From an uncultured Acidobacteriota bacterium (GTDB taxonomy: Bacteria; Acidobacteriota; Vicinamibacteria; Vicinamibacterales; 2-12-FULL-66-21), in assembly GCA_963749835.1 (NCBI GenBank), contig CAVVOD010000003.1, forward strand, positions 656,721 through 720,720: a DNA stretch of 64,000 nt, read 5' to 3'. Made by a program: the position numbers and the translations under genes. Under the pieces are notes generated by a model. The model saw only the letters and a program-made list of their open reading frames with translations, had not been told where the DNA came from and made no database searches. This document shows positions 32,364-64,000 of this stretch, one piece after another. Within the stretch, counting starts at the first letter, position 1; every line of letters begins with the position of its first letter.

Positions 32364-33995
32364 ATGCGACTGCTCACTCCGATGCTCCAGATTCAGCGGG
32401 GACCACACATGACTCGAACGAACGCCGTCGTTGGCGGTGTGACATTGGTGATCGGGCTGGTGGCAATCGCCATCGCGTTGCCACGCGCCCAGGCGGGCGC
32501 TCCCGCGAAGCCGGCAGCAGGAGCGCGTCAGGGCGGTGCGCCGGACCAGGGCGGCCGCGGTGGTCCCGACGCCAATCCGACGGCTGCGCTCTTCACGGCG
32601 CAATGTTCAGGCTGTCACGGCACGGACCTGGCCGGAGGCCGGGCGCCCAGCCTGTTCGATGAGCGGTGGCTCGCATCGACGACGGACGAGCGAATTGCGA
32701 ACGCGATTCGCAATGGTGTTCCGAATACCGCCATGGTGCCGTTCAAGAACTTGGGTGACGAACAGATCTGGCAACTCACGCAGTACGTGCGAACGCAGAG
32801 CGGCGTCCTGAAAGCGCGTCCCGCGTTCGTCGTCGCCGCCCTGGACGGCGCGGTGGTGAAAAGCGAGAAGCAGACGGTGCGTATGGAAGTCGTGGCCAAG
32901 GATTTGGACACGCCATGGGGCATCGCGTTTCTGCCCGACGGCCGCATGCTCGTCACCGAGCGGACTGTCGGCGGCGGTCAGCTTCGGGTCGTGGAGAAGG
33001 GCGTCCTGCTGCCGGCCGTGAAGGGCACGCCACGTGTCCACGTCCAACAGGATGCCGGGATGTTCGATGTGCAGGTGCACCCGCGGTACGCCGACAACGG
33101 CTGGATCTATCTGTCCTACGCGGAGCTCCTTCCCGGCTACACGCCGCCGGCCGCGCCGGCCGCCGGCACGGGTCGCGGCGGAGCGACGGCGCCGTCGATG
33201 ACCGCGATCGTCCGCGGACGACTGAGAAACAACGAGTGGGTCGATCAGCAGTTCATCTATCACGCGCCGCCGGCGCTCTACACGGCAGACGGTTCGCACT
33301 TCGGGTCGCGATTCCTCTTCGGACGTGATGGGCATCTCTTCTACTCGATTGGCGATCGCGGCGTGATGCGGAACGCGCAGGATCTGTCGAGCCCGCTCGG
33401 CAAGATTCATCGGGTGAATGACGATGGGACGATTCCGGGCGACAACCCGTTCGTGAATACGCCGAACGCGGTAGCGTCAATCTGGAGCTACGGCCATCGC
33501 AACCCGCAAGGCCTCGCGTGGGATCCCGTCTCCGGCCGGCTCTGGGAAACGGAGCACGGGCCCACGGCTGGCGACGAGGTCAACATCATCGAGCGCGGAC
33601 ACAACTACGGATGGGGAATCGCGACGAAGGGCACCGAACCCGGCATCACCAAGAGCTCGGAGCCGGGGATGGACGAGCCGATCGTGTACTACATCCCGAC
33701 GTACGCACCGGCGGGCATCTCGTTTTCGACAAGCGATCGCTATCCCGCCTGGAAGAATACGAGCCTGTTTGTCGGCGGTCTCGCCGGGCAGGCACTTCGC
33801 CGTCTCGAAATCTCCGGCAGTCGGGTGACGCGACAGGAAGTGATCTTCAATCAGTACGGCCGCGTGCGCGACGTGGTCGAAGGACCGGACGGCTACCTGT
33901 ACCTCGCCATCAACCACGCCACCGGTGCAGGAACGAACTACGGTCTCATCGCGCCGGTCCCTGGCTGGGTCGTCCGGCTCATGCCAGTGCAGTAA
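32364..33995 (+). CDS. PQQ-dependent sugar dehydrogenase (soluble glucose/sorbosone dehydrogenase family) with N-terminal cytochrome c domain
   Basis: A CSGCHG haem motif with a downstream Met region (NTAMVPF). The SGDH propeller follows (PWGIAFLPDGRMLVTER, HFGSRFLFGRDGHLFYSIGDRG, WSYGHRNPQGLAWD, GHNYGWG). An alternative start at ATG 32409 (MTRTNAVVGG..., TM/signal) is likely. Confidence 0.85.
   Translation: MRLLTPMLQIQRGPHMTRTNAVVGGVTLVIGLVAIAIALPRAQAGAPAKPAAGARQGGAPDQGGRGGPDANPTAALFTAQCSGCHGTDLAGGRAPSLFDERWLASTTDERIANAIRNGVPNTAMVPFKNLGDEQIWQLTQYVRTQSGVLKARPAFVVAALDGAVVKSEKQTVRMEVVAKDLDTPWGIAFLPDGRMLVTERTVGGGQLRVVEKGVLLPAVKGTPRVHVQQDAGMFDVQVHPRYADNGWIYLSYAELLPGYTPPAAPAAGTGRGGATAPSMTAIVRGRLRNNEWVDQQFIYHAPPALYTADGSHFGSRFLFGRDGHLFYSIGDRGVMRNAQDLSSPLGKIHRVNDDGTIPGDNPFVNTPNAVASIWSYGHRNPQGLAWDPVSGRLWETEHGPTAGDEVNIIERGHNYGWGIATKGTEPGITKSSEPGMDEPIVYYIPTYAPAGISFSTSDRYPAWKNTSLFVGGLAGQALRRLEISGSRVTRQEVIFNQYGRVRDVVEGPDGYLYLAINHATGAGTNYGLIAPVPGWVVRLMPVQ
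33932..33993 (+). repeat. left copy of imperfect 62-bp direct repeat (last 20 codons of the sugar dehydrogenase gene)
   Basis: Aligns base by base with 40482-40542. By hand count, 53 of 62 positions are identical, including one 1-nt gap. Confidence 0.8.
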
Positions 33996-50051: not shown

Positions 50052-50265
50052 TTCTACCCACTGACGGGCGGCAACTACCCACATGAATTGGGCAGGGTCC
50101 GCCACGCGAAATACGCAGTCCCACCGAAGCGCACCACCGTGCCCGAGCCGCAGACTCTCGACATCGGACGCCACGACAGGCTCGCGGCGACCATGACCAG
50201 CGACGTAAACCAGAGATGTCGCGCTGACGAATGCGTCAGCGGCAATTCAGAGGAGAAAACGAAAA

Positions 50266-51718
50266 ATGCACACGCACATGCGCGCTCGAATGTTGTCCAT
50301 GTTCGCCGGGCTGCTGGTCGGAGCAGTCAGCCTCGGATTGGCTCCCGCCGCCTATGCGGCCGGCATTCCCGTCAACACACTCGCTGACAGATGGGTGGGC
50401 GGGCGCCTGTACGCTGCGCGACGCGATCGCCGCCGCCAACACCGACAGCGCCGTGAGTGGTTGCCCGGCCGGGTCGGGAGCCGACACGATCACGTTCAGC
50501 GTCAGCGGCACCATCGGCCTGGGCAACGTGCTGATCATTCCAGCGGGTTCCAGCGTTATCGTGGACGGCAGCGGGCAGACTATTGCGATCAGCGGCCAGC
50601 GTGCCATGCAGGTCCTGGACGTTCGCGGAACACTCGACCTTCGGCGCGTGACGATCGCCGACGGCTCGGCGAGCTTCGAGGGCGGCGGCATCGTCAATAG
50701 CGGGACCCTGACCGTCAAGGACTGTACCTTCTCGGGCAACCAGAGCATCGTAGTCGGTGGGGCGATCTCCAACTTGGGCGTTCTCACCGTCAGCAACACA
50801 ACGTTCAGGGGAAATATTGCAGCTTTTGGTGGCGCGATCCAAAACTTTTTCACCGCCACTGTCGGCAACAGCACCTTCTCCGGTAACACGGCCACAGCAA
50901 CTGGCAGCGGTGTCAACAATGACGGTACGATCACGGTTCTCGACAGCACTTTCTTCGGCAACTCCGGAGTCGGCCTGAGGAATGCCCCAAGCCCCGATCT
51001 AACCACCGTGTTGAATCTTGGGAACACCATTCTGGCGAATAACGTCGGAGGGGACTGCCGGAACGAGGGCGATACTCTCAACGTGACGGGGCCCAACCTG
51101 ATCGCAGACGACGACCACACCATCCGCTCGTGCTCCATTGCGGCCACGATGACCGGCGATCCGACTCTCGGCCCCCTGGCCGACAACGGCGGGCCGACCC
51201 TGACGCATGCCCTGCTGCCCGGCAGTCCGGCCATCGATGCGGCCAACGACACCCTGTGTGCGGCATCCCCGGTCAATAATCTCGATCAACGCGGTCAGCC
51301 CCGTCCCGCCGATGGGGATGGCGACGGCGCGGCGGCCTGCGACCTCGGCGCGTTCGAGCATTCCGTGGTGTTCTCGTTCACCGGCTTCTTCGCGCCGCTG
51401 GACAACCCGCCGGTGCTCAACGTAGCCAATGCCGGCCGGGCGATCCCGGTCAAGTTCAGTCTCGGCGGCTATCAAGGGATGAACATTCTGGCGGCCAACT
51501 CGCCAGGCTCGACCGCCACGGCCTGCGACGGCAGCGGCGGCGCCAGCGTGGTCGAGGAAACGGCCGCGGCTGGCGGCAGCAGCCTGACCTACGACGCAGC
51601 CACGGACCAATACACTTACGTGTGGAAGACGCAGAAGAGCTGGGCACGCACCTGCCGCCAGTTGATCCTCACGCTGACGGACGGAACCGTTCACACGGCG
51701 AACCTGCAGTTCAAGTGA
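50266..51718 (+). CDS. secreted right-handed beta-helix repeat protein with C-terminal PxKF-like domain; 5'-proximal frameshift
   Basis: ATG 50266 follows AGGAG and gives the signal peptide [42 protein letters not shown] 1-nt shift near 50389 joins it to [36 protein letters not shown], a choice-of-anchor-Q-like start. G/N/T-rich beta-helix repeats follow. The C-terminus contains [12 protein letters not shown]. Confidence 0.7.
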
Positions 51719-51889
51719 CCGCATGGCGGGGACGGTGTGAAGCCGTCGGCGGAGCGCCAACCTTCCGCCGCGGCCGAACACCGGAGCCCGCCGCACACGC
51801 GGTTCTCAATGGAAGTCGTTGGCGGAGACGGTGGGGTTCACACCCTCTCCGCCACGAACCGACGCGGGGCTGGGAGCCCCGCGATGTGT

Positions 51890-51982
51890 GCTCCCGGCTG
51901 AAGCCGGAAGCTACGAATGGGGCCGGACGACTACGACCGGGTAGGAATCCGGGGCCCGACTCCCGAGCCCCGAATCCCGATC
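51890..51982. repeat. hairpin + degenerate heptamer-array element (copy 1), abutting the nrdJ stop codon
   Basis: GCTCCCGGC-TGAA-GCCGGAAGC hairpin (51890-51911) followed by ...CCCGACTCCCGAGCCCCGAATCCCGATC. The reverse complement CGTAGCTTCCGGCTTCAGCCGGGAG matches CGTAGCTTCCGCCTTCAGGCGGAAG at 63370-63393. A separate 9-bp-stem hairpin lies at 51863-51883. Confidence 0.6.
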
Positions 51983-51984
51983 TG

Positions 51985-54775
51985 TTACGCGCAGCCGCTG
52001 GTCGTTCCGCAGTTCGCGCACTTGTAGCACGAACCCGAGCGCACCATGATCGACCCGCACGTCGAGCACGGCGGGGCATCTTCCTGGTTCTGAATCGCCG
52101 CGAACGACGAGGTCGCGCGCGACGTGATGGCGCCGGTAGCCGAGGCGCCTGCAGCAGCCGCGACGTCGAGCGGCAGCTGCTCCGGCGTGGTGAGGGTCTC
52201 CTCGCGGTTGTTGACCCCCGCGCGGAACTGCGCCTCCGGCGACAGGAACTTCGCCGCCATCCACCGGAAGATGTAGTCGACGATCGACTTCGCGAAGCGG
52301 ACGTCGGGGTTCTTCGTCATCCCCGACGGCTCGAAGCGCACGTGGCTGAACTTGTCGACCAGATCCTGCAGCGGCACGCCGTACTGGAGCGCGTAGCTGA
52401 TCGCCTGGGCGAAGGCATCGGCAAACCCCGAGATGGTCGACCCTTCCTTCGCCATGACGAGGAAGATTTCGCCGGGCGTCCCGTCCTCGAAGAGCCCGAC
52501 GGTGATGTAGCCCTCGTGGCCGGCGATGTCGAACTTGTGCGTGAAGGCATGCCGCTCGTCCGGCAGCTTCCGGCGGCGCGGGCCGGGATCGACGGTCACG
52601 GCGGCCGCCTTTTCCTTGTCGCGCGCCGTGTTCAGCGGCTGCGTGCGCTTGCTGCCGTCACGATAGATGGAGACGGCCTTCGCGCCGATCCGCCACGAGT
52701 CGATGTACGCCTGCTGGATCTCGTCAACGGTCGCTTCCTTCGGCACGTTGACGGTCTTCGAAATCGCGCCCGAGAGGAACGGCTGCACGGCCCCCATCAT
52801 CCGCACGTGGCCCATGTAGTGAATCGAGCGCACGCCGCGCGACGGCTTGAACGCGCAGTCGAACACCGCCAGGTGATGATCCTTGATGTGCGGCGCCCCT
52901 TCGATCGTCTCGTGCTCGTCGATGTACTCGATGATCTCCTTGATCTGCGTGGCGCCGTAGCCCAGCTTCGTCAGCGCCATCGGCACGGTCTGGTTGACGA
53001 TCTTCATCAACCCGCCGCCGACCAGCTTCTTGTACTTCACCAGCGCGATGTCCGGCTCGACACCCGTCGTGTCGCAGTCCATCATGAAGCCGATCGTCCC
53101 GGTCGGCGCCAGCACGGTCGCCTGCGCATTGCGGAACCCGTACTGCTCGCCGAGCTCGATGACCTCGTCCCACACCGCCTTCGCCGCCTGGAAGAGGTCC
53201 GACGGCAGGTGCGTGCGATCGATGTCCTTGAGCGCCGCGCGATGCTTCCGCATCACCCGGATGAAGGGCTCCTTGTTCTTCTCGTATCCGGCGAACGGAC
53301 CGCCGTGATCGCGCGCGATCTTCGCCGACTGCGCGAACGCCGCCCCGTGCATCAGCGCGGTGATCGCCGCCGCATAGTCGCGACCCGAGTCGCCGTCGTA
53401 GGGAGCCCGCGCGACATGAGCAGCGCGCCCAGGTTCGCGAAGCCGAGGCCGAGGGGACGGATACTCGTGGCTGTTCTTCGCAATCGCCGGCGTCGGATAG
53501 CTCGAGTTGTCGACCAGGATCTCCTGCGCCGTGATCATCGTCCGGCACGCGGCTTCGAACGACACCGAGTCGATCTCGCCGTCGTCCCTCAGAAACTTCA
53601 TCAGGTTGATCGACGACAGGTTGCACGCCGTGTCATCGAGGAACATGTACTCGGAGCACGGGTTGCTCGCGTTGATCCGCGCCGTGTTCGGGCACGTGTG
53701 CCAGTCGTTGACCGTCGTGTCGAACTGCATGCCCGGATCGCCGCAGATGTGCGTCGCTTCCGCGATCTGGTGCATCAGGTCGCGCGCCTTGTAGGTCTGC
53801 ATCGGTGCGCCGTCGCGCACCGCCTTCGTCGTCCACTCCCCGTCGTCCATCACCGCGCGCATGAACTCGTCGGTCACGCGCACGCTGTTGTTCGAGTTCT
53901 GGAAGAAGACGGATGAATACGCCGGACCGGTGAACGAGCCGTCGTACCCGGCGTCGATGAGCGCCCAGGCCTTCTTCTCTTCCTCGACCTTGCAGTTGAT
54001 GAACTCTTCGATGTCCGGATGATCCGAGTTGAGGATGACCATCTTCGCGGCGCGGCGCGTCTTGCCGCCCGACTTGATGACGCCGGCGAACGCGTCGAAA
54101 CCCTTCATGAACGAGACCGGTCCCGAGGCGGTGCCGCCCCCCGCCAGCAGCTCGTGAGACGAACGGATCGCCGACAGGTTCGAACCGGTGCCCGATCCGA
54201 ACTTGAAGAGCATCCCCTCGGTCTTCGCCAGGCCGAGAATCGACTCCATCGTGTCCTGCACGGAGTTGATGAAGCAGGCCGAGCACTGCGGCGCCTTCTC
54301 GAAGCCGACGTTGAACCAGACAGGACTGTTGAACGCCGCCTTCTGGTACACGAGCAGATGCTTGAGGTCGTCGCTGAACGCCTGCAGATCGTCCTCGCTC
54401 GCGAAGTACCTTCTGCTTCACCGCCCAGCCCGTAATCGTGTCGACCACGCGTCCGATGAGCTGCTTCACGCTCCGCTCACGCTCCGGTGTGCCGATGGTG
54501 CCGCGGAAGTACTTGGAGACGACGATGTTGGTGGCCTGCTGGGACCAGAAGCGGGGGATTTCGACGTCGCGCTGCTCGAAAACTACGTTCCCCTTCTCGT
54601 TGCCTATCACGGCCGAGCGGACGTCCCATTCGACCTCGTCGAATGGATCGAGCCCCTCACGTGTGAAGAACCGTTCGTATTCGAGTCCAGGCACGCTCGC
54701 CGGCCCGGATGCCGGTGTGCGGGCCAGAATCTCCGTGCTGGTGGATTCCACCTGCGGAGCTGCGCCTCTCTGCAT
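51985..54775 (-). CDS. nrdJ: class II (adenosylcobalamin-dependent) ribonucleotide reductase, one internal frameshift
   Basis: N-terminal ORF (from ATG 54775, RBS GGAGGGG) reads ...VVSKYFRGTIGTPERERSVKQLIGRVVDTITGWAVKQK. After a shift near 54408-54412 it continues YFASEDDLQAFSDDLKHLLVYQKAAFNSPVWFNVGF...SNPCSEYMFLDDTACNLSSINL.... The tail is Cys-rich (CSTCGSIMVRSGSCYKCANCG). Confidence 0.9.
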
Positions 54776-54975
54776 CTTCCCCTCCGAAACGCGAGTCCAG
54801 ACCAGACCCCTAGGTCAGGACCCCGAAACTACAAATATTGGATGGCGGCCATTAGACGTCGCAGGAGATCGGCGACGCAGGTAATGCCCTGCGCAATAAC
54901 ATGTTGTCGCTGATCCGCGCTGCCGGTCGCGAGGGCTGGGAAGTCCTCGTTCTGGTCTCAGGTCGCTGGCAGACG

Positions 54976-55004
54976 AATATGGACCCTGTTTACGTGGTTG
55001 TCAA
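54976..55004 (-). promoter_or_regulatory. candidate sigma70-type promoter for nrdJ
   Basis: On the minus strand: TTGACA (55004-54999), a 17-nt spacer, then CATATT (54981-54976). This implies a leader of about 195 nt before ATG 54775. Confidence 0.4.
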
Positions 55005-55012
55005 GCGTGGAT

Positions 55013-55060
55013 CTACCAGATATTGTGCCCTCAATTTAGGGCAGGCGCAAGATATTGACA
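55013..55060. promoter_or_regulatory. two tandem NrdR-box-like palindromes upstream of nrdJ
   Basis: On the minus strand, GCACAATATCTGGTAG (55028-55013) matches the published NrdR box consensus acaCwAtATaTwGtgt at 11/16. TGTCAATATCTTGCGC (55060-55045) matches at 10/16. Centres are 32 bp apart, the spacing reported for tandem NrdR boxes, just upstream of the -35. Confidence 0.45.
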
Positions 55061-55155
55061 AATTGCCCGGAATGGCGCCCGTTCTTCTGACTGACCTATT
55101 TTTTTTGCGTTCGCCGATTATCTCGCCTCGCGGTCAGCTCGTCAGCCGCTCCCGC

Positions 55156-55728
55156 TCAACGACTTTGAAGCTCTTTGGCCAGTCGGTCCGCCTTCTCCGC
55201 CAGATTCCTCGCAAATTCGAAATTGGCCGCCTTCAAGGCGTCCTCGGACTGCGTCACCATGAGCCTGGCCTGCTCGAACTGCTGCCGGCGCTCCGTCGAC
55301 AGGCGGTTGGGATCGATCGACCCGAGCCCTTTCTTTGCGCGCTCGATCACATCGTGGATCTGGCGGGTGGCTTCGGCGCCGTCCGCAGTCCCGGGGGTCC
55401 TGAGCTGGGGAACGGGCGGAGCCACGGGCGTGGACGCGGCGGGCTGCTCCGTCGCAAGGGCCGGCTCCGCAGGCTTGGGCTCCACCTTTGCCGTGTCACG
55501 TGGCGGCGGGGTCGCCCGCTTCAGCGGCGGCATCTGCGCGACGGGAGGAAGCTCCTCCACGGGCTGTTCCGGCGGCGGTGGCTCCACGACCCTCGCCTCG
55601 ATCACGCGCGGGGGCACTTGGGGGACCTCGAGGTTCGGACGATCCGCGGGCGACTTCGCCTGTGCAGATGCGCACGCGGCGCTGCCTGCCAGGCACCCGA
55701 TCGCGATCAGCAAGAGAAGCTTCCTCAT
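55156..55728 (-). CDS. lipoprotein, Pro-rich linker + helical C-terminal domain (hypothetical)
   Basis: MRKLLLLIAIGC lipobox, then a P/E/A-rich segment and a helical C-terminus (RQQFEQARLMVTQSEDALKAANFEFARNLAEKADRLAKEL). It is the last gene of the NtrC/NtrB-like operon. Confidence 0.65.
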   Translation of the reverse strand: MRKLLLLIAIGCLAGSAACASAQAKSPADRPNLEVPQVPPRVIEARVVEPPPPEQPVEELPPVAQMPPLKRATPPPRDTAKVEPKPAEPALATEQPAASTPVAPPVPQLRTPGTADGAEATRQIHDVIERAKKGLGSIDPNRLSTERRQQFEQARLMVTQSEDALKAANFEFARNLAEKADRLAKELQSR

Positions 55729-55829
55729 CTCAACCCCGCATCAACCTGCAAAACTTCCAAAATCATCGGCGGCCTGCCGAGCTGATCATCGCACCCGCGC
55801 AAGGCCATGTGCCGGTTGTCACAAACAAA

Positions 55830-57703
55830 TCACGCCTGTGGAAAAATCAACCTGAACCTGGTGCCGCGACCCGGGGTCGATTGCACCTCCACTTCTCCAC
55901 CGTGGAGCTGGACGATACGATAAACCATGGAGAGCCCGATGCCGCTCCCTTTCTCCTTCGTGGTGAAGTAGAGGTCGAAGATCCGGCCGAGATGCTCGGG
56001 AGGAATCCCCACGCCCGTGTCTTCGACGTTGATCTCCACCCGCCGCCGCGAGAGCGCGCGACAGCTGATCTTGAGCGTCCCGCCGTCCGGCATCGCCTGA
56101 CACGCGTTCAGCGCGAGATTCAGCAGCGCCTGTCCCATCATCCCCGGATCGGCATTGATGGCCGGCAGGTTCTCTGCGCAGTCCACGGTCATCGTGATCC
56201 GGTTCCGTTCCGCTTCGGCTGCTGCCGTCGTCGCCACATCGGAAACGAGCGCGGTAAGCCGGATCGGCTGCAACTTGAGCTCATCGGGCCTGGCGAACTT
56301 CAGAAATCCGTTGACCACTTCGTCCAGCCGCTTGATTTCCTTGCTGATGACATCCACGTGCTTGGCGACGTCGACGCCAGGGCCTGAGGGTTTAGACGTC
56401 TCAGGCAGCATCGGGACGTCCCCGGCGGCCACGAGCTGGCGCGAAAGCTTCTGCTTAAGCAGCTCGAGATGAATGGTCATCGCGTTCAGCGGGTTCTTGA
56501 CCTCGTGCGCAACACCCGCCATCAACCGGCCGAGAGCGGCGAGCTTACGCGAATAGTTGAGCGTCGAGTGCACCTGGCTCAAGTACGCGAGATTGCGGGC
56601 CACGAGCATCGCGCCGATAAACCGCCCGCTCGCGTCCGTGATCGCGTGGCTGATGACCAGCCGGTCCGCTCCTTCGAGCGCATCGGACTCCGTGATGCGG
56701 ACCGTGGCGTCTCTCGACGGCAACGCCATCGAGACGGGGCCCTGTGACTTGCGCCCGGCCAGCGTGCGTTCCACGATCTGACGCACGGGATGGCTGGCGG
56801 GCAGCCCCCCGATCGGGCCGGTGTGCAGCGCATTCATCGCGGCGTTACTGAAAATGACGTCTCCGCGGGGGAAAACAGCGCGACCGCGTCCTCGAGATTG
56901 TTCATCACGGACTCGAGATCCGTGGACGGCTGGCGCACGATGGCCGACCCGGGATCCGCACTGCGGCCCATGGCGGACAGTTGCTGGCTGACGGCGTCGA
57001 ACGAGCTCCCAAGATCGCGAAACTCCTGCTCCGGCAGGTCGAGGCGCACGTCGAGCTCACCGCGTCCGAGACGCACCAGCCCGCTCTGGATCACGTGAAT
57101 CGGCCGGAGCATCCACTGCGACAGCAGCATGGCGACGAGCGACGACACGGCGAGCGCACCCAGCACGGTGCCGGCCGCGCCCCAGAGGGCATGCCGCAGC
57201 TCGCTGCGCACGAGGAGCGTCGAGACGCCTATCCGGATGGACCCGAACTGGCGATCCCCCGCGAGGATCGGCTGCCGGATCTCGAAGGTGCGGTCGGAAT
57301 AGACCCCGCGCAGCTGCGCCATCGTCCCGGCCCTGACGAGCGGCGCCAGCTCCTCCTGTTCCGTCATGGGCTGTCCCTCGAGCGGCGTCAAGAGATGAGC
57401 GACGGCGATCCCGTCCTTGTCGACAATCGCCGCGTAGGTCAGGTTCTCCGAGTAGTTGACGCTCGACTCGAGGATCGATCGCAACACGCCGTCGGCCCGC
57501 AGCGCGCCGTAGGGATCCGCGCCCCCCTCGGCGACGACCTGCCTCGCGCGCTGGAAGATGGCCTGCGCGAGGATCTCGCAACGAGCGGCCGTCTCCTGCA
57601 GGCTCAATCGAGCGAGCGTCGCCAGGTGGTACGCGCTGAGGACCAGCACGACGACGACCACCAGCGTGGTGACCCCGGCGACCTGTTTGGTTTTGATGGA
57701 CAT
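55830..57703 (-). CDS. sensor histidine kinase (TM-HAMP-PAS-HisKA-HATPase, NtrB/AtoS-like), one frameshift in a homopolymer
   Basis: ORF 56834-57703 covers the TM helices and HAMP (LRPIHVIQSGLVRLGRGELDVRLD). ORF 55830-56837 covers PAS, the H-box GVAHEVKNPLNAM and the HATPase (GSGIGLSMVYRIVQLHGG). They join if the G5 run at 56867-56871 is G6, giving ...DAVALFSPRGDVIFSNAAMNALH. Confidence 0.88.
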
Positions 57704-57766
57704 CGAGTGTCAGCTACTGACGGCCATCCGAGCTTCTGACCACACGGGTCGCGAGACGACAGGACA

Positions 57767-59164
<1,398 letters not shown>

Positions 59165-59334
59165 CTATTCTCTATGTTCCCCGTTTGGTGTTTTTCGTGT
59201 GTTTCTTACACTTCAAGCCTAACACCCGGAGTAACCGTTACACACCCCTTACTTGGCCCCCGCAGGATTGTCGCTGGCAACCGCCAATTCCTATCACAAA
59301 CGCATCCACAGGTCATTCGCGGCTCGACGGTCCC

Positions 59335-59350
59335 GGGCACACCCATTGCA
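59335..59350 (+). promoter_or_regulatory. sigma54 (-24/-12) promoter
   Basis: GGGCACACCCATTGCA compared with consensus TGGCACG-N4-TTGCW. GG (59336-37) and GC (59348-49) are at exact consensus spacing. It lies in the divergent intergenic region next to the sigma54 activator gene. Palindromes GTAACCGTTAC (59231-41) and GTGT-N7-ACAC (59197-59211) upstream are possible activator sites. Confidence 0.7.
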
Positions 59351-59361
59351 GAGCTTTGGAC

Positions 59362-60303
59362 ATGAGAAATTTCCTGATGGTGGTGAGTCTGACCGCTGCA
59401 CTCGGCGCCTGCTCAAGCAAGAACACGCTCGACATCCCGACCGGTACCGAGGTGACGGTTGAAAAAACCGACGGCGTGACGGTAGCCGGGCGTCTGGTCG
59501 ACGTCCAGGCGGACAAGGTCATCGTCGAGAGCCGCGACGGCGTGAAGACGAGCGTCCCCCGCACCCTGATTGCCTCGATCCACCCGACGCCTGCCGCGAC
59601 TCCGGCGACGGCGGTGGACAAGAGCGCGAAGCCGTCACCGGCCGCTGCCGAGGCGCTGGCGCCGGCCTCGGCTCTCGTCCCAGACGACAAGCCGGCGACC
59701 CCTGGACCCGATGCGAAGCCAGCCACAGACGACCGGCCGACAGCGACGGCTGGCACGACGGACCGCAAGCCGGAGTACCGGGAAGTGACGCTGCCGGCTG
59801 GGACGACGCTGACCGTGGCGCTGAACTCGATCGTGGGATCCGACACGAGCCGCGTCGAGGATCCCGTGCACGGCACCCTTCGCCACGCCGTGCGCATCAA
59901 CGGCCTGCAGGCGCTGCCGATCGGAACGGCTGTGTCCGGACACGTGACCAGCGCGCAGCCGGCGGGCAAGGTGAAGGGGCGGGCATCGATCGGGTTCCGC
60001 TTCAACACCATCGAGCTTCCGGGCAAGTCTCGCGAGCCGATCAGTACGGCGACGTACTCGCGCACGTCCCGCGCGACGAAACAGAAGGACGCCACCAAGA
60101 TTGGCGTGGGCGCAGGGGCCGGGGCCGTCATCGGTGGGATCCTCGGCGGCGGCAGCGGCGCCGCCAAGGGTGCGGCCATCGGCGGCGGCGCGGGCACGGC
60201 TGTGGTGCTCTCCACCAAGGGGGATGAAGTGCGGATCCCGGCAGGTACGCCCGTCACCATCAAGTTGACCGCGCCGCTCACGGTTCAGGTGCCCCTGAAA
60301 TAG
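59362..60303 (+). CDS. lipoprotein with C-terminal glycine-zipper domain (hypothetical)
   Basis: The lipobox is MRNFLMVVSLTAALGAC. An A/P/T/K-rich linker follows. The C-terminus is GVGAGAGAVIGGILGGGSGAAKGAAIGGGAGTAVVL, a Gly-zipper. The track ORF starts upstream at 59185, but that stretch overlaps the promoter region. Confidence 0.7.
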   Translation: MRNFLMVVSLTAALGACSSKNTLDIPTGTEVTVEKTDGVTVAGRLVDVQADKVIVESRDGVKTSVPRTLIASIHPTPAATPATAVDKSAKPSPAAAEALAPASALVPDDKPATPGPDAKPATDDRPTATAGTTDRKPEYREVTLPAGTTLTVALNSIVGSDTSRVEDPVHGTLRHAVRINGLQALPIGTAVSGHVTSAQPAGKVKGRASIGFRFNTIELPGKSREPISTATYSRTSRATKQKDATKIGVGAGAGAVIGGILGGGSGAAKGAAIGGGAGTAVVLSTKGDEVRIPAGTPVTIKLTAPLTVQVPLK

Positions 60304-60304
60304 A

Positions 60305-60450
60305 TCGGGATTCGGGACTCGGGATTCGGGATTCGTTCTTCCGCCTGAAGGCGGAAGCCACGAGCCCGGATCCCCAATCGCGACTCTCCAGTCCAATCCC
60401 TGATCCCGAGTCCCGACGCGAGCCCCGAATCCCGAAGCCCGAATCCCGGG
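60305..60450. repeat. heptamer-array/hairpin element (copy 2, most regular)
   Basis: Left arm is 4 tandem GGGAYTC units (60307-60334). The central hairpin is CTTCCGCC-TGAA-GGCGGAAG (60338-60357). The right arm carries the complementary units (GATCCC, GAGTCCC, GAATCCC, GAAGCCC, GAATCCC; 60393-60447). It fills the gap between a stop codon (60301-03) and the next ORF (60455). Confidence 0.75.
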
Positions 60451-60454
60451 CCGT

Positions 60455-61225
60455 GTGGTACAGTTCTCCCCTGTGTACGAGCCCGTTCCGGAGCTCCCGT
60501 ATCTCCCCGTCCGGCGACCGGTGCTTGCGATCGAGCGGCTCGGCGCACTGGTGGAAGTCATCATCTGCTCAGGTTTCCCTTCACAGATCCTGCTGATCCT
60601 CGTGCTGCGCGGCTTCGGCATGCACATGATGACGGCCGATGGGCGGTTGTCCCCTCCGTTCGTCTTCACGCTGTCGCTCATCGACGCGGCACTGGTCGTC
60701 GGTCTCGTCGTGTTCTTCCTGCGGGCGCACCATGAGTCGGCGCGGGAGGTCCTCGTCGGTGGCAGGCCGGTCCTTCGCGAAGCGGTGGTCGGGCTCGCGC
60801 TGCTCCCCGCGATTTTCATGTTTGCGGTGCTGGTGCTCGTGGTCGTGTTGAGATTCGCTCCGCAGCTGCACAACGTGACGCAGAACCCGCTCGAAGACAT
60901 GCTCCGCACGCGCGACGATGCATTGATTTTTGCCGGGGTCGTCATGCTCGCCGGCGGCGTCCGTGAGGAAGTCCAGCGCGGCTTCATCGTCCATCGCTTC
61001 GGCCAGTACCTCGGCGGCGCCGGGTGGGGCGTGGTCATCTACAGCGTCATTTTCGGTCTCGGCCACGTGGAGCAGGGGATCGACGCGATGATCGTCACCG
61101 GGCTGCTCGGGGCCGCATGGGGGCTGCTCTACATCGCCCGCCGGAGCATCGTCGCGTCCATCGTCAGCCACGCGGGCTTCAACCTCGCGCAGCTCCTGAA
61201 GTACCTCGCGTTCGCCGTGAGGTAG
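60455..61225 (+). CDS. CPBP family intramembrane glutamic endopeptidase
   Basis: Multi-TM product with REEVQRGFIVHRF (EExxxR motif), FGLGH and SHAGFN motifs. The start is uncertain (GTG 60455 abuts the repeat element). Confidence 0.8.
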   Translation: MVQFSPVYEPVPELPYLPVRRPVLAIERLGALVEVIICSGFPSQILLILVLRGFGMHMMTADGRLSPPFVFTLSLIDAALVVGLVVFFLRAHHESAREVLVGGRPVLREAVVGLALLPAIFMFAVLVLVVVLRFAPQLHNVTQNPLEDMLRTRDDALIFAGVVMLAGGVREEVQRGFIVHRFGQYLGGAGWGVVIYSVIFGLGHVEQGIDAMIVTGLLGAAWGLLYIARRSIVASIVSHAGFNLAQLLKYLAFAVR

Positions 61226-61260
61226 CCAGCCGCTTGACCCGCCGATTCACCGGCTTCCTG

Positions 61261-62664
61261 ATGCTGTCGTCGCGCGAGCTGACGCTGCTCGCGCTCCTGT
61301 TCCTGTGCTCGCTGCCCGCGGTGACGGCGCGGCTGTACTCGTCCGACGAAGTGCAGTACTTCTCGTATCTCCGATCGCTGTGGTTCGATCACGACGTGTC
61401 GTTCGAAAACGAGTACCGGTATTTCTACGATCACGGGATCGCGCAGTCCGCCGGTTTCCACTACACGTTCCTCGAGCTGCAGACGCCGGCGGGGCGACGG
61501 ATCAACTACGGCACGATCGGGTGCGCGGTCCTCTGGAGTCCGTTCTACGCCGCGGCCGACGTCGTCGCGCGGGGCGCGCGGGCGGCCGGGTATGACGTTG
61601 CGGTGGACGGCTATTCCCGCCCGTACGTCATGGCCGTCGCTTACGGATCCACCTTTTACGGATTCGCCACTATCGTGCTTGGAATCGCGGCCGCCCGGCG
61701 CATCCTGGGTGCGAGCGCGCTGACGTCGGGATTCGCGGTGTGGGCCGGCACACCGATTCTCTTCTACATGTACATTGCGCCGCCGTTCTCACATGCGTGC
61801 TCGGCGTTTGCGGTTGCTCTCTTCGTCACGGTCTGGCTGCACGTGAGACGGACGTGGACTGTCCGCGGAGTCGTCGCGCTCGGGCTGTCGGGGGCGCTCG
61901 TGGCGATGGTGAGAGAGCAGGATCTGCTGTTCACTGTCGCGCCGGCGATCGATTACGCCCTGACGCAGTGGGCCCGGGCACGGAGCCGGGGCCCGGAGGG
62001 CAGGCCCGGCACGTCCATCGCACCGGCCGTGGCGGGATGCGTCGCGTTTGCGATCGGGTATCTGCCGCAGCTCCTCGCGTATGAGGCCCTGAACGGCGGA
62101 CCACGGCCGTCCGAGCTCGTCACGCGCAAGATGAACTGGATCTCGCCGCATGCGCTCCAGGTGCTCGCGTCACCTGAACACGGATTGTTTTTCTGGACAC
62201 CCCTTGCCGTCCTGTCCCTCGCGGGGCTCGTCGTCCTCTCAACGCGTGGCGATGCGGCCCGTCGCCGCGTGGGCGCGTGCCTGCTGCTGATGGTGGCGCT
62301 CCAGGTTTATGTGAGCGGCGCGGTCGAGTCGTGGACCGTGGCTGGAGCGTTCGGGCAGCGCCGCTTCGTCTCGATCACGATGCTCCTCGTGGTGGGGCTC
62401 GCGGCACTGCGCGAGGCCGTGCCGGCGCGAACGTCCCGCACGCTGCTGAACATCACGATAGCTTTCTGTGTCTGGTGGAACGTCGCGCTGATGGCGGAGT
62501 TCGGCACCGGGTTGATGGATCGTCAGCGCCTGGAGCCGGGGCGGAACGCATACGATGCCTTCGTCACGCTGCCGCGAATGGCACCGCATCTCATCTACCG
62601 CTACCTGGTGCATCGATCGTCGTTCTACAAACCACCAGCGGCCCCCCGGCAGGAACAGCGTTGA
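61261..62664 (+). CDS. polytopic membrane protein, putative GT-C-type (ArnT/PMT-like) glycosyltransferase
   Basis: Start at ATG 61261 (MLSSRELTLLALLFLC...). More than 10 predicted TM helices. An acidic first-loop motif (YSSDEVQYFSYLRSLWFDHD) recalls GT-C enzymes. It lies next to a GT4 gene. The assignment is tentative. Confidence 0.5.
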   Translation: MLSSRELTLLALLFLCSLPAVTARLYSSDEVQYFSYLRSLWFDHDVSFENEYRYFYDHGIAQSAGFHYTFLELQTPAGRRINYGTIGCAVLWSPFYAAADVVARGARAAGYDVAVDGYSRPYVMAVAYGSTFYGFATIVLGIAAARRILGASALTSGFAVWAGTPILFYMYIAPPFSHACSAFAVALFVTVWLHVRRTWTVRGVVALGLSGALVAMVREQDLLFTVAPAIDYALTQWARARSRGPEGRPGTSIAPAVAGCVAFAIGYLPQLLAYEALNGGPRPSELVTRKMNWISPHALQVLASPEHGLFFWTPLAVLSLAGLVVLSTRGDAARRRVGACLLLMVALQVYVSGAVESWTVAGAFGQRRFVSITMLLVVGLAALREAVPARTSRTLLNITIAFCVWWNVALMAEFGTGLMDRQRLEPGRNAYDAFVTLPRMAPHLIYRYLVHRSSFYKPPAAPRQEQR

Positions 62665-62672
62665 CGCCTCGC

Positions 62673-64000
62673 ATGCTCCGCATCCTCTACTTCGCGGACA
62701 TCCGTTTTCCCCTCGAACGCGCAAACGGAATCCAGACGATGGAGACGTGTTTCGCGCTGGCCGAGCGAGGGCACGACGTGGAGCTGATCGTGCGGCCGGA
62801 CACCGATAAGCTGGCGAGAGACCCATTCGAGTACTACGGGCTGCCGCCGTTGAAGCGCCTCTGGATTGAACGCGCGCCGACCAGTGGCCCCGTCGCCGCC
62901 CGGCGGCTCGGCTATCTTGCCTTCGCAGTCGGGCGTGCTGGCGGGAGCAAGCGTGCCGACGTCGTGTTCACCCGGGACCTCGGTGTGGCATCGTTGCTGC
63001 TGCGGATGCCACGGGGACTGCGTCCGCCTCTCGTCTACGAGTCGCACGGGTATGCGCCTGACGTGGCGGCCGCGCTGCCCGAGCTGATTGCCACCGCCGC
63101 GGTGCCTCCGCTAGGCAAGCTGCGCCGCCTCGAGCGTCGAGAGGCGCACGTCTGGCAGCGCGCCGAGGGATATGTCACGATCACGGCAGCCCTTGCGGCA
63201 GATCTCGTTGGCCGGTACGGCGAACGCCAGCGAGTCGCGGTGGTACCGGATGGCGTCAGACTCGGGGCTCGGGACTTGGGATTCGGGACTCGGGATTCTG
63301 GACTCGGGGACTCGGGACTCGGGGCTCGGGATTCGGGACTCGGGGAAACGGGACGCGGGATTCGGGACCGTAGCTTCCGCCTTCAGGCGGAAGACTCGGG
63401 AATGGCGACTCGGGACTCGGGATTCGGGGAAGCAGGAAGCGGGAAGCAGGAAGCAGGGAGCGGCATTCCAATCGTCGCCTACGCGGGCCATCTGTATGCC
63501 TGGAAGGGTGTCGACGTCCTGCTCGAAGCGCTTGCGCTCGTGCCGGCTGTTCGCGGATTGATTGTCGGCGGGCACGAGGCCGAACCGGATCTTGGCCGGC
63601 TGAGGACGCTGGCGGAGCGGCTCGGGATCGCTGCGCGGGTGACGTTCACCGGCCTCGTCGCACCTGCCAGGGTCGCGGATCTCCTTCGCAGCGCCACGAT
63701 CCTTGCGCTGCCGAATCCGGCCTCCGCCATCTCGAACCGCTTCACGTCGCCGTTGAAGCTGTTCGAGTACATGGCGGCCGGGCGGGCGATCGTCGCGTCA
63801 GATCTGCCGTCGGTCCGCGAGGTCCTGCACGACGACGTGGATGCGCTGCTGGTGGCGCCGGGAGATGCCGCTGCGCTCGCAGACGCCATCCGCCGCCTCG
63901 TCGCGGAGCCCGCGCTCGTCGAGCGGCTGGGGCGCCGGGCGGCCGAGGCGGCACCCGATTATTCCTGGGCCCGCCGCGCGGAGCGGCTCGAGGCGTTGTT
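62673..64000 (+). CDS. GT4-family glycosyltransferase, partial (runs off the right edge), with repeat-derived insertion in the inter-domain linker
   Basis: Absent from the ORF track because no stop occurs in the window. Hand translation from ATG 62673 is open to 64000. It reads MLRILYFADIRFPLERANGIQTMETCFALAERGHDVELIV...VVPDGVRLG-[repeat-encoded ~70 aa]-IPIVAYAGHLYAWKGVDVLLEAL...SPLKLFEYMAAGRAIVASDLPSVREVL. Confidence 0.85.
   Translation, partial: MLRILYFADIRFPLERANGIQTMETCFALAERGHDVELIVRPDTDKLARDPFEYYGLPPLKRLWIERAPTSGPVAARRLGYLAFAVGRAGGSKRADVVFTRDLGVASLLLRMPRGLRPPLVYESHGYAPDVAAALPELIATAAVPPLGKLRRLERREAHVWQRAEGYVTITAALAADLVGRYGERQRVAVVPDGVRLGARDLGFGTRDSGLGDSGLGARDSGLGETGRGIRDRSFRLQAEDSGMATRDSGFGEAGSGKQEAGSGIPIVAYAGHLYAWKGVDVLLEALALVPAVRGLIVGGHEAEPDLGRLRTLAERLGIAARVTFTGLVAPARVADLLRSATILALPNPASAISNRFTSPLKLFEYMAAGRAIVASDLPSVREVLHDDVDALLVAPGDAAALADAIRRLVAEPALVERLGRRAAEAAPDYSWARRAERLEAL
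63259..63468 (+). repeat. heptamer-array/hairpin element (copy 3) embedded in-frame in the GT4 coding sequence
   Basis: More than 14 GGGAYTC-like units surround CGTAGCTTCCGCC-TTCA-GGCGGAAG (hairpin 63374-63393). In the gene frame it translates as ARDLGFGTRDSGLGDSGLGARDSGLGETGRGIRDRSFRLQAEDSGMATRDSGFGEAGSGKQEAGSG, with no stop. Confidence 0.8.

Follow-up and report, generated by a model that had tools for sequence, protein, structure and literature searches.

Probable nesting of a GTAG-type REP unit in a heptamer-array hairpin in the Vicinamibacterales

Analysis of a 64-kb stretch of DNA from an uncultured member of the Vicinamibacterales (Acidobacteriota; contig CAVVOD010000003.1, here called the window) centred on an element at positions 60305-60450, in which arrays of GGGAYTC heptamers and of their complements enclose a GC-rich hairpin. 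We conclude that this element is probably a chance-permitted nesting of two independent repeat classes, a repetitive extragenic palindromic (REP) unit of the GTAG type and a hairpin of heptameric simple sequence repeats (SSRs). Judged by its sequence features, the GC hairpin belongs to the GTAG-tagged superfamily of REPs. Both repeat classes are abundant in the scarce non-coding DNA of Vicinamibacterales.

The element is the second of three copies in the window and is referred to as copy 2. Its parts and the genes on either side are as follows; C-type is one of two REP subtypes described below.

60305-60450, no strand assigned: the composite as a whole (copy 2), a hairpin of heptamer arrays that bears a REP at the apex and occupies the spacer of two co-oriented genes
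60301-60303, + strand: TAG stop codon of the upstream gene, read from the sequence; the first heptamer lies 3 nt further on
60307-60334, + strand: left arm, GGGATTC GGGACTC GGGATTC GGGATTC, with four G3 tracts
60338-60357: core hairpin, CTTCCGCC-TGAA-GGCGGAAG, followed by CCAC
60338-60361, - strand: REP unit, C-type, GTGG-CTTCCGCC-TTCA-GGCGGAAG (tag, 8-bp stem and 4-nt loop), an exact match to the core
60362-60448, + strand: right arm, ~12 degenerate GARYCCC units, complementary to the left arm
59185-60303, + strand: upstream gene, encoding a putative lipoprotein (taken from the list of open reading frames; weak Gly-zipper match, Pfam PF13441)
60455-61225, + strand: downstream gene, encoding a CPBP/Rce1-like intramembrane protease, with a GTG start at 60455 (Pfam PF02517, E = 3e-16)

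The heptamers, hairpin and complementary array that a preliminary description of this DNA had placed between a stop codon and the next open reading frame (ORF) are all present. The limits of the REP unit were taken from a logo of 229 copies. Tandem Repeats Finder (TRF) reports the left arm at 60305-60335 (period 7, 4.4 copies, 91% matches) and the right arm at 60395-60448 (period 7, 8 copies, 67% matches); the units of the latter include GAGTCCC, GAGCCCC, GAATCCC, GAAGCCC and GAATCCC, and the array ends at 60448. The spacer between the putative lipoprotein gene, which has a likely start at 59362, and the CPBP gene measures 151 nt. The long imperfect hairpin proposed in the same description is borne out by RNA folding, with z ~ -6. 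Region 60300-60455 (156 nt) is predicted to form one such hairpin, the right arm pairing with the left in the minimum free energy structure, at -84.4 kcal/mol on the + strand (z = -6.6) and -92.0 kcal/mol on the - strand (z = -5.8), and the stability was matched by 0 of 200 shuffled sequences.

A scan of 185,579 species-representative genomes for the hairpin core revealed further copies, at no fewer than 117 loci (at least 117; individual loci are cited below by L numbers). The window and 117 listed loci, which make up 871 kb (~0.87 Mb from roughly 40 genomes), contain 229 core copies with three or fewer mismatches, and a control on reversed sequence gave none. The conserved unit is exactly 24 nt long, GT(G/A)G-CTTCCGSC-TTCA-GSCGGAAG, with conservation above 94% per position outside the variable sites in the 229 copies, and is made up of an unpaired tag, GTRG, and a stem of 8 bp with a loop of 4 nt. 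Within the tag, the first G is present in 99% of copies, T in 94%, G in 75% (A in 20%) and the final G in 99%. The flanks are essentially random outward of positions -5 and +24, except for weak preferences, Y at -4 and ATC at the 3' end; since the complement of the tag is missing from this 3' flank, the tag is unpaired. The abrupt end of conservation at 24 nt, together with the random flanks, argues that the arrays and the hairpin are not one family.

The two S positions of the stem are complementary in 157 of the 158 exact copies and define two covarying subtypes, C-type CTTCCGCC and G-type CTTCCGGC. Sister families with a GTAG tag, a TT(C/T)A loop and other stems are present in the listed loci (e.g. 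L028, L036 and L040), examples being GTAG-GGGCCGGC-TTCA-GCCGGCCC and GTAG-GCCGGGTC-TTTA-GACCCGGC. Retention of the loop across the sister families suggests that the loop itself is recognised.

The repeat is dispersed and of high copy number, with three copies in the 64-kb window alone; extrapolation gives ~100-300 copies per genome. Metagenome-assembled genomes (MAGs) of Acidobacteriota/Vicinamibacterales account for 114 of the listed 117 loci, so that the 24-mer is practically lineage-specific and a possible marker for binning and taxonomy, as well as a possible bait for a cognate transposase. Matches at L081 and L083 lack the tag, these two untagged genome matches being close to the number estimated to arise by chance, and 2.9 million viral contigs yielded only two core matches, both untagged. 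These untagged outliers in L081, L083 and the two viral contigs behave as chance matches. A genuine GTG-tagged inverted REP dimer of Vicinamibacterales type is found at L078 1483-1547, in a MAG labelled 'uncultured Actinomycetes' (CAWKDP010000012.1); the contig could be mis-binned or mislabelled, or could come from a real second host lineage. An assembly artefact was rejected as the source of the repeat, which occurs in over 30 MAGs obtained by many studies and on multi-megabase contigs as long as 2.7 Mb.

The 229 cores form 143 clusters, and 153 of the cores have another core within 300 bp. Neighbouring pairs within this distance are inverted in 60 cases and direct in 26. The common inverted doublets are mostly heterotypic, combining a C-type with a G-type unit in 41 of 59 pairs against 46% expected, and their arms would hold two mismatches if paired to each other; all 21 direct pairs made up of two canonical cores are homotypic. 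A tandem triplicate of a 45-nt REP-plus-spacer unit in L051 shows how direct runs arise. With respect to transcription, the units have a weak orientation bias (45 same, 31 opposite, on crude gene calls), which fits a DNA-level parasite with incidental RNA effects. In bacterial interspersed mosaic elements (BIMEs), Y and Z REPs alternate, and the alternation of C-type and G-type units parallels these; orientation and REP subtype both alternate here, as in a BIME.

Comparison of related genomes reveals changes of occupancy. Loci L025, L113 and L051 are syntenic with 55.8-64 kb of the window at a nucleotide identity of 67-82%, and the 8-kb syntenic block contains five repeat-bearing sites, each filled in only one of the four genomes compared. 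Copy 2 is missing from the orthologous spacer in all three other genomes. At the site of copy 3, the orthologues of the glycosyltransferase family 4 (GT4) gene that carries this copy in the window are shorter by ~150 nt. L113 has a REP dimer between an NtrC gene and a sensor-kinase gene. No target-site duplication was seen on comparing filled with empty sites. The 24-mer is identical across genomes whose orthologous genes share only 67-82% of their nucleotides; identity in the face of 20-30% gene divergence argues for continued copying or a conserved recognising protein. The REP has been gained and lost between related genomes.

The same comparisons show that the REP is tolerated in frame within protein loops and linkers. 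L025 and L051 have unique inserts in different loops of one conserved membrane protein, the orthologue of that encoded at window 61261-62664, which has no Pfam match. The insert in L025 (6034-6183) is of 38 residues and contains LPPEGGSH, a REP read on the reverse strand. The 50-residue insert in L051 (3790-3964) consists of four REPs, one of them C-type and inverted, the other three G-type, in tandem and encoding VASGFSRK three times. In L114, the in-frame REP peptide FRLKAEAT lies in a molybdopterin oxidoreductase. About 10% of REP copies are in frame within genes, and a strict test, requiring an open frame of at least 80 codons and a G + C content at third codon positions (GC3) above 0.78 on each side, places 12 of the 143 clusters within ORFs. 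These intragenic assignments rest on orthologue alignments and the strict flank test, not on gene calls. Another unique insert, of ~40 residues and without a REP core, occurs in the membrane protein's L113 orthologue (L113 ~1300-1450; alignment columns 310-362). Elsewhere in the syntenic block, the sensor histidine kinase downstream of NtrC is split in the window (55830-57703, - strand) into two ORFs with a 4-nt overlap, where L113 (5080-6951) has a single ORF of 623 amino acids.

The heptamer arrays form a repeat class of their own, the commoner of the two. Among 363 tandem repeats detected by TRF in the 871 kb, 65 have period 7 and 43 have period 14 (108/363). A core is found within 200 bp of just 14 of the 65 period-7 arrays, which leaves 79% with no REP nearby, and ~90% of REP clusters are not accompanied by a heptamer array. 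The array units are locus-specific (GGGATTC, AGCTATC, CACGAAT, CTGATCC, AATGCTG, ACTCCCA, GGTCCAC and others). The preliminary description had joined arrays and hairpin in a single family, a claim that these numbers and the random flanks of the 229 copies do not support. An inverted partner array, defined as two or more complementary units within 220 nt, accompanies 40 of the 65 period-7 arrays (62%) against 0 of 65 in a reversed-unit null, and typically the inverted arrays make up a hairpin that has an unconserved 10-120-nt loop and lacks a REP (22 examples). The two arms may have different variant patterns, as in L042, which argues that each arm slips independently. Few arrays lie between divergent genes (3, as against 16 between convergent genes; background 89 and 85), although this is a rough indication only, based on crude GC3-based calls of 70-77% coverage that missed the CPBP gene and placed a false ORF over copy 3. 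A CRISPR-like array was rejected as an identity for the heptamers, which have a period of 7 and no spacers.

The other two copies in the window, summarised below, display the two classes in different relationships.

51891-51914, - strand: copy 1 REP unit, G-type with one stem mismatch, GTAG-CTTCCGGC-TTCA-GCCGGGAG
51944-51978, - strand: copy 1 heptamers, GGGATTC GGGGCTC GGGAGTC GGGCCCC GGATTCC (TRF 51955-51980)
63259-63368, + strand: copy 3 5' heptamer array, ~15 GGGAYTC units in the GT4 frame, which stays open (TRF period 7, 15.4 copies)
63370-63393, + strand: copy 3 REP unit, C-type, GTAG-CTTCCGCC-TTCA-GGCGGAAG, translated as ..SFRLQAE..
63394-63461, + strand: copy 3 3' arrays, GGGAYTC units oriented as in the 5' array, then five GGAAGCA (TRF 63393-63428 and 63428-63461)
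62667-64000, + strand: ORF of a GT4-family glycosyltransferase, an open frame that continues past the end of the window

The claim that the window holds three members with a shared core in both orientations was upheld: the 21-nt core GCTTCCGSCTTCAGSCGGRAG occurs at 51891-51911 (-), 60338-60358 (-) and 63373-63393 (+), and 100 shuffles of the window contain none. The double heptamer GGGAYTCGGGAYTC, with one mismatch allowed, is found 18 times in the window against 0.22 expected, and all 18 matches adjoin the three cores. According to TRF, period-7 arrays in the window that exceed 3.5 copies likewise all adjoin a core, and the sole period-7 entry of three or more copies away from them is a weak GCCGCCG repeat (3.3 copies, at 33143). 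All three REPs and every strong heptamer array are confined to the last 12.5 kb of the window, none being present in its first 51 kb.

In copy 3, the hairpin is flanked by GGGAYTC units that run in the same direction on either side, and the fold is no better than that of shuffled sequences (z = -0.7). The 'inverted arrays' of the preliminary description are therefore a fair account of copy 2 and, in miniature, of copy 1, but not of copy 3. Deletion of 27 nt, 63369-63395 (C-GTAG-stem-loop-stem-AC, nine codons), restores a split GGGACTC unit, so that the REP looks to have been inserted into an array that already existed. The encoded protein matches Pfam Glyco_transf_4 over amino acids 24-198 and Glycos_transf_1 over 266-426, and the repeat module of ~200 nt (63259-63461) corresponds to amino acids ~198-265; by these domain limits it encodes exactly the linker between the two Rossmann-like domains. 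The gain or loss of one 7-nt unit in this module would shift the frame, an arrangement that is classic for phase-variable glycosyltransferases.

Copy 1 lies between convergent genes, at 50231-51718 (+) and 51985-54351 (-), the latter encoding a class II ribonucleotide reductase (RNR) according to Pfam. Its heptamers begin ~6 nt past the RNR stop codon and are predicted to fold on themselves, and the - strand of 51815-51986 is predicted to form four successive hairpins (-104 kcal/mol, z = -6.9). Two more GC-rich hairpins, CGCGGGGCT-CCC-AGCCCCGCG and GGCGGAGA...TCTCCGCC, are found at 51823-51881, between the copy 1 REP and the convergent gene.

The hairpin of copy 2 most resembles the GTAG-tagged REPs and BIMEs, including the REP/REPIN-RAYT systems of enterobacteria and Pseudomonas. 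GTAG REPs are palindromes of 20-40 bp with an unpaired GTAG at one end and stems of 6-9 bp; some families have the degenerate tag GTRG, most Opitutus terrae copies have GTGG, and the units are often close together in opposite orientation, mostly intergenic but in some cases within ORFs (Di Nocera et al. 2013, PMC3733652). The Vicinamibacterales REP agrees with this description in every structural feature that could be tested (palindrome length, stem, tag, copy number and inverted neighbours). It also shares with GTAG REPs the in-frame copies and the presence of several stem families per genome, and differs from them in its phylum, in its stem sequence, which is new, and in having a TTCA loop common to sister families. 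The published survey found GTAG REPs in Proteobacteria, Cyanobacteria, Chloroflexi and the Planctomycetes-Verrucomicrobia-Chlamydiae (PVC) group, and in Acidobacteria only Y1 transposases flanked by terminal inverted repeats (PMC3733652).

In its in-frame copies, the REP resembles the Rickettsia palindromic elements (RPEs) and the intragenic REPs of O. terrae, which are short palindromes that have entered conserved genes in frame, lengthen loops or linkers by 8-50 residues while leaving the ORF intact, and occupy different sites of the same gene in different genomes. RPE-4 and RPE-6 have a CGTC tag and RPE-1 is longer, whereas the Vicinamibacterales REP has a GTRG tag and is mostly intergenic. 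The likeness to REP/BIME or MITEs (miniature inverted-repeat transposable elements) remarked on in the preliminary description is upheld for the hairpin as regards REP/BIME. It fails for MITEs: the element is small, non-coding, hairpin-forming and dispersed as they are, but it has no terminal inverted repeats matching an insertion sequence, no target-site duplication and no conserved body beyond the 24 nt.

The heptamers too have precedents. Heptameric SSRs with the units GGGAATC in Xanthomonas and GGGGAYT in Nostoc form 70 convergent inverted pairs in one genome, lie a mean of 28 nt behind the upstream ORF, are depleted between divergent ORFs and form G-quadruplexes (G4s) in vitro, their function being unknown (Rehm et al. 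2015, PMC4692102). The Vicinamibacterales arrays are likewise tandem 7-nt units, intergenic and frequently in convergent inverted pairs near ORF 3' ends, as far as crude gene calls can tell. Their GGGAYTC unit is nearly the same as GGGAATC and GGGGATT, and they lie close behind the upstream ORF. With these SSRs and the cyanobacterial short tandemly repeated repetitive (STRR) heptamers they share a rarity between divergent genes, convergent stem-loop pairs and arrays of commonly about four units. They differ from the Xanthomonas and Nostoc SSRs in having many unrelated, locus-specific units, 62% inverted pairs, an array in a coding linker and REPs that are sometimes nested. Such a multiplicity of heptamer units within one lineage is unusual.

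Rfam gave no match in the window at the gathering score, and in E-value mode the element returned only miRNA noise, far below gathering. The literature searched contains neither the motif nor a paper linking Vicinamibacter with REP or RAYT (REP-associated tyrosine transposase). 'Undescribed-looking', the preliminary description's term for the repeat family, is too strong, as the two classes have both been described in other phyla (PMC3733652, PMC4692102).

A scheme for the origin of the element can be put forward. From the features of its family, the REP most likely spreads as a single-stranded DNA hairpin, a RAYT-type HUH/Y1 transposase reading the tag and the stem-loop. C-type and G-type REPs are paired in opposite orientation, after the manner of BIMEs, or amplified in tandem. 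The GGGAYTC arrays are probably products of replication slippage, which would have extended both arms of an older hairpin, and at copy 2 the REP would have arrived at the apex of such a hairpin by the single-stranded HUH/Y1 (RAYT) route accepted for GTAG REPs. If co-transcribed with the upstream gene, copy 2 would give a very stable 3' stem-loop with no U-tract, which, by analogy with enterobacterial REPs, would block 3' exonucleases or dampen read-through into the CPBP gene. By this analogy, 3' protection or attenuation of read-through is the most plausible effect of copy 2 on RNA.

Several points weigh against this account. The transposition step for the Vicinamibacterales REP is one that we infer. 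No RAYT (PF01797-type protein) was found among the 7,917 ORFs of the window and 117 loci with an HUH...Y..NP regular expression or with phmmer, for which an approximate Escherichia coli RayT sequence served only as a probe. A hidden Markov model of 61 Y1 transposases run over the same DNA, a small slice of each genome, gave a best E-value of 2.8, and none of 80 metagenomic Y1-transposase loci, from a scan with a four-seed alignment, contains the core. A RAYT need not exist, for the CGTC REP superfamily has no transposase dedicated to it (Di Nocera et al. 2013, PMC3733652). Moreover, a REP sits at the apex of a heptamer hairpin in ~6 cases (window copy 2, L009, L114, L067, L046 and L117), which may be somewhat above random placement, in which case the two classes would not be fully independent. 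The gene calls used for context are crude, with some false ORFs across repeats, and the effect of copy 2 at the RNA level may equally be negligible. RAYTs are typically single-copy and only a small slice of ~40 genomes was sampled, so that the failure to detect one is uninformative and not a negative. The ORFs between REP pairs 0.6-1.3 kb apart are ordinary genes, encoding RidA-like, sugar-binding, Mo-oxidoreductase and TIM-barrel isomerase proteins.

We consider it unlikely that the hairpins are instead functional RNA signals, serving locus by locus as terminators, attenuators or stabilisers of mRNA 3' ends and kept by selection, and are not mobile DNA. Such signals would agree with the start of copies 1 and 2 only 3-6 nt past stop codons, with the great stability of the predicted folds and with the avoidance by heptamer arrays of divergent, promoter-containing spacers, and similar positional biases have been reported for REPs and for the Xanthomonas heptamers. 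However, the ~10% of copies in frame in ORFs are placed where termination would be lethal to the gene, every insertion in the syntenic block is unique to one genome, and both orientations relative to transcription are used. The 24-mer, identical though the genes are only 67-82% identical, suggests that copying is ongoing or that a trans-acting recogniser is shared. A reading of the stems as intrinsic terminators was rejected: no T-run follows them, and terminator-like matches in 51600-64000 are at chance level (7 against 6.3 expected from shuffles), the only one inside a repeat element being a weak 5-bp stem at 60318-60330, in the left arm of copy 2. If regarded as secondary and exapted, RNA signalling is compatible with the nesting of two independent repeat classes.

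It is distinctly improbable, to our mind, that a dedicated hairpin-processing mechanism, perhaps the enzyme that handles the REPs, makes and maintains the locus-specific 7-mer arrays and that the GT4 array is an on/off switch. Such a mechanism would explain the strict 7-nt period over unrelated units, the symmetry of the arms and the apex REPs. A mechanism of this kind behind the periodicity, or the GT4 array as a phase switch, is a residual possibility; were it true, the array at 63259-63461 would be a contingency locus in a soil acidobacterium.

Very little likelihood attaches to the whole arrays-hairpin-arrays module of ~150 bp being a single mobile unit, a MITE or REPIN-like composite that moves as a block. 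An array, a REP at the apex and a complementary array do follow one another in copy 2, L009, L114, L046 and L067, and the module is missing at orthologous sites. Nothing is conserved beyond the 24-nt unit, however, and the array units vary by locus (GGGATTC, AGCTATC, CACGAAT and others). Most arrays and most REP clusters occur apart, as detailed above, the arrays of copy 3 are direct with the REP interrupting a single unit, and the arms differ in their variants, each evolving on its own (L042). Least probable of all is an action of the arrays through G4s or as rows of sites bound by a DNA-binding protein, the hairpin being incidental: the left arm of copy 2 has exactly the four G3 tracts that are the minimum for a G4 and the near-identical GGGAATC and GGGGAYT repeats form G4s in vitro (PMC4692102), but many arrays in the same genomes have no G-tracts (AGCTATC, CAATGCT, ATTGCTG, CGGTCTA), 62% have a complementary partner whose pairing into a duplex or hairpin would compete, and no candidate binding protein was identified.

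With copy 2 read as a REP nested in a heptamer hairpin, GTAG-type REPs are extended to the Vicinamibacterales, an abundant and almost uncultured soil lineage of the Acidobacteriota, a phylum for which they are unreported in the literature searched. Of modest interest are the new phylum, the clean BIME-like alternation of subtypes and the frequent in-frame decoration of conserved proteins; our understanding of how such repeats work is unchanged. The multi-unit inverted heptamer arrays provide a further system, beside Xanthomonas and Nostoc, in which to ask why bacteria favour 7-nt repeats. The repeats are also a trap for the automatic annotation of Vicinamibacterales genomes. REPs and heptamer arrays have few or no stops in most frames and so give rise to spurious ORFs and can fuse neighbouring genes. 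Spurious long ORFs run over the repeats at window 63111-63575 (-) and 63172-63561 (+), for example, and a fused gene is seen in the 744-amino-acid ORF at L025 4857-7091.

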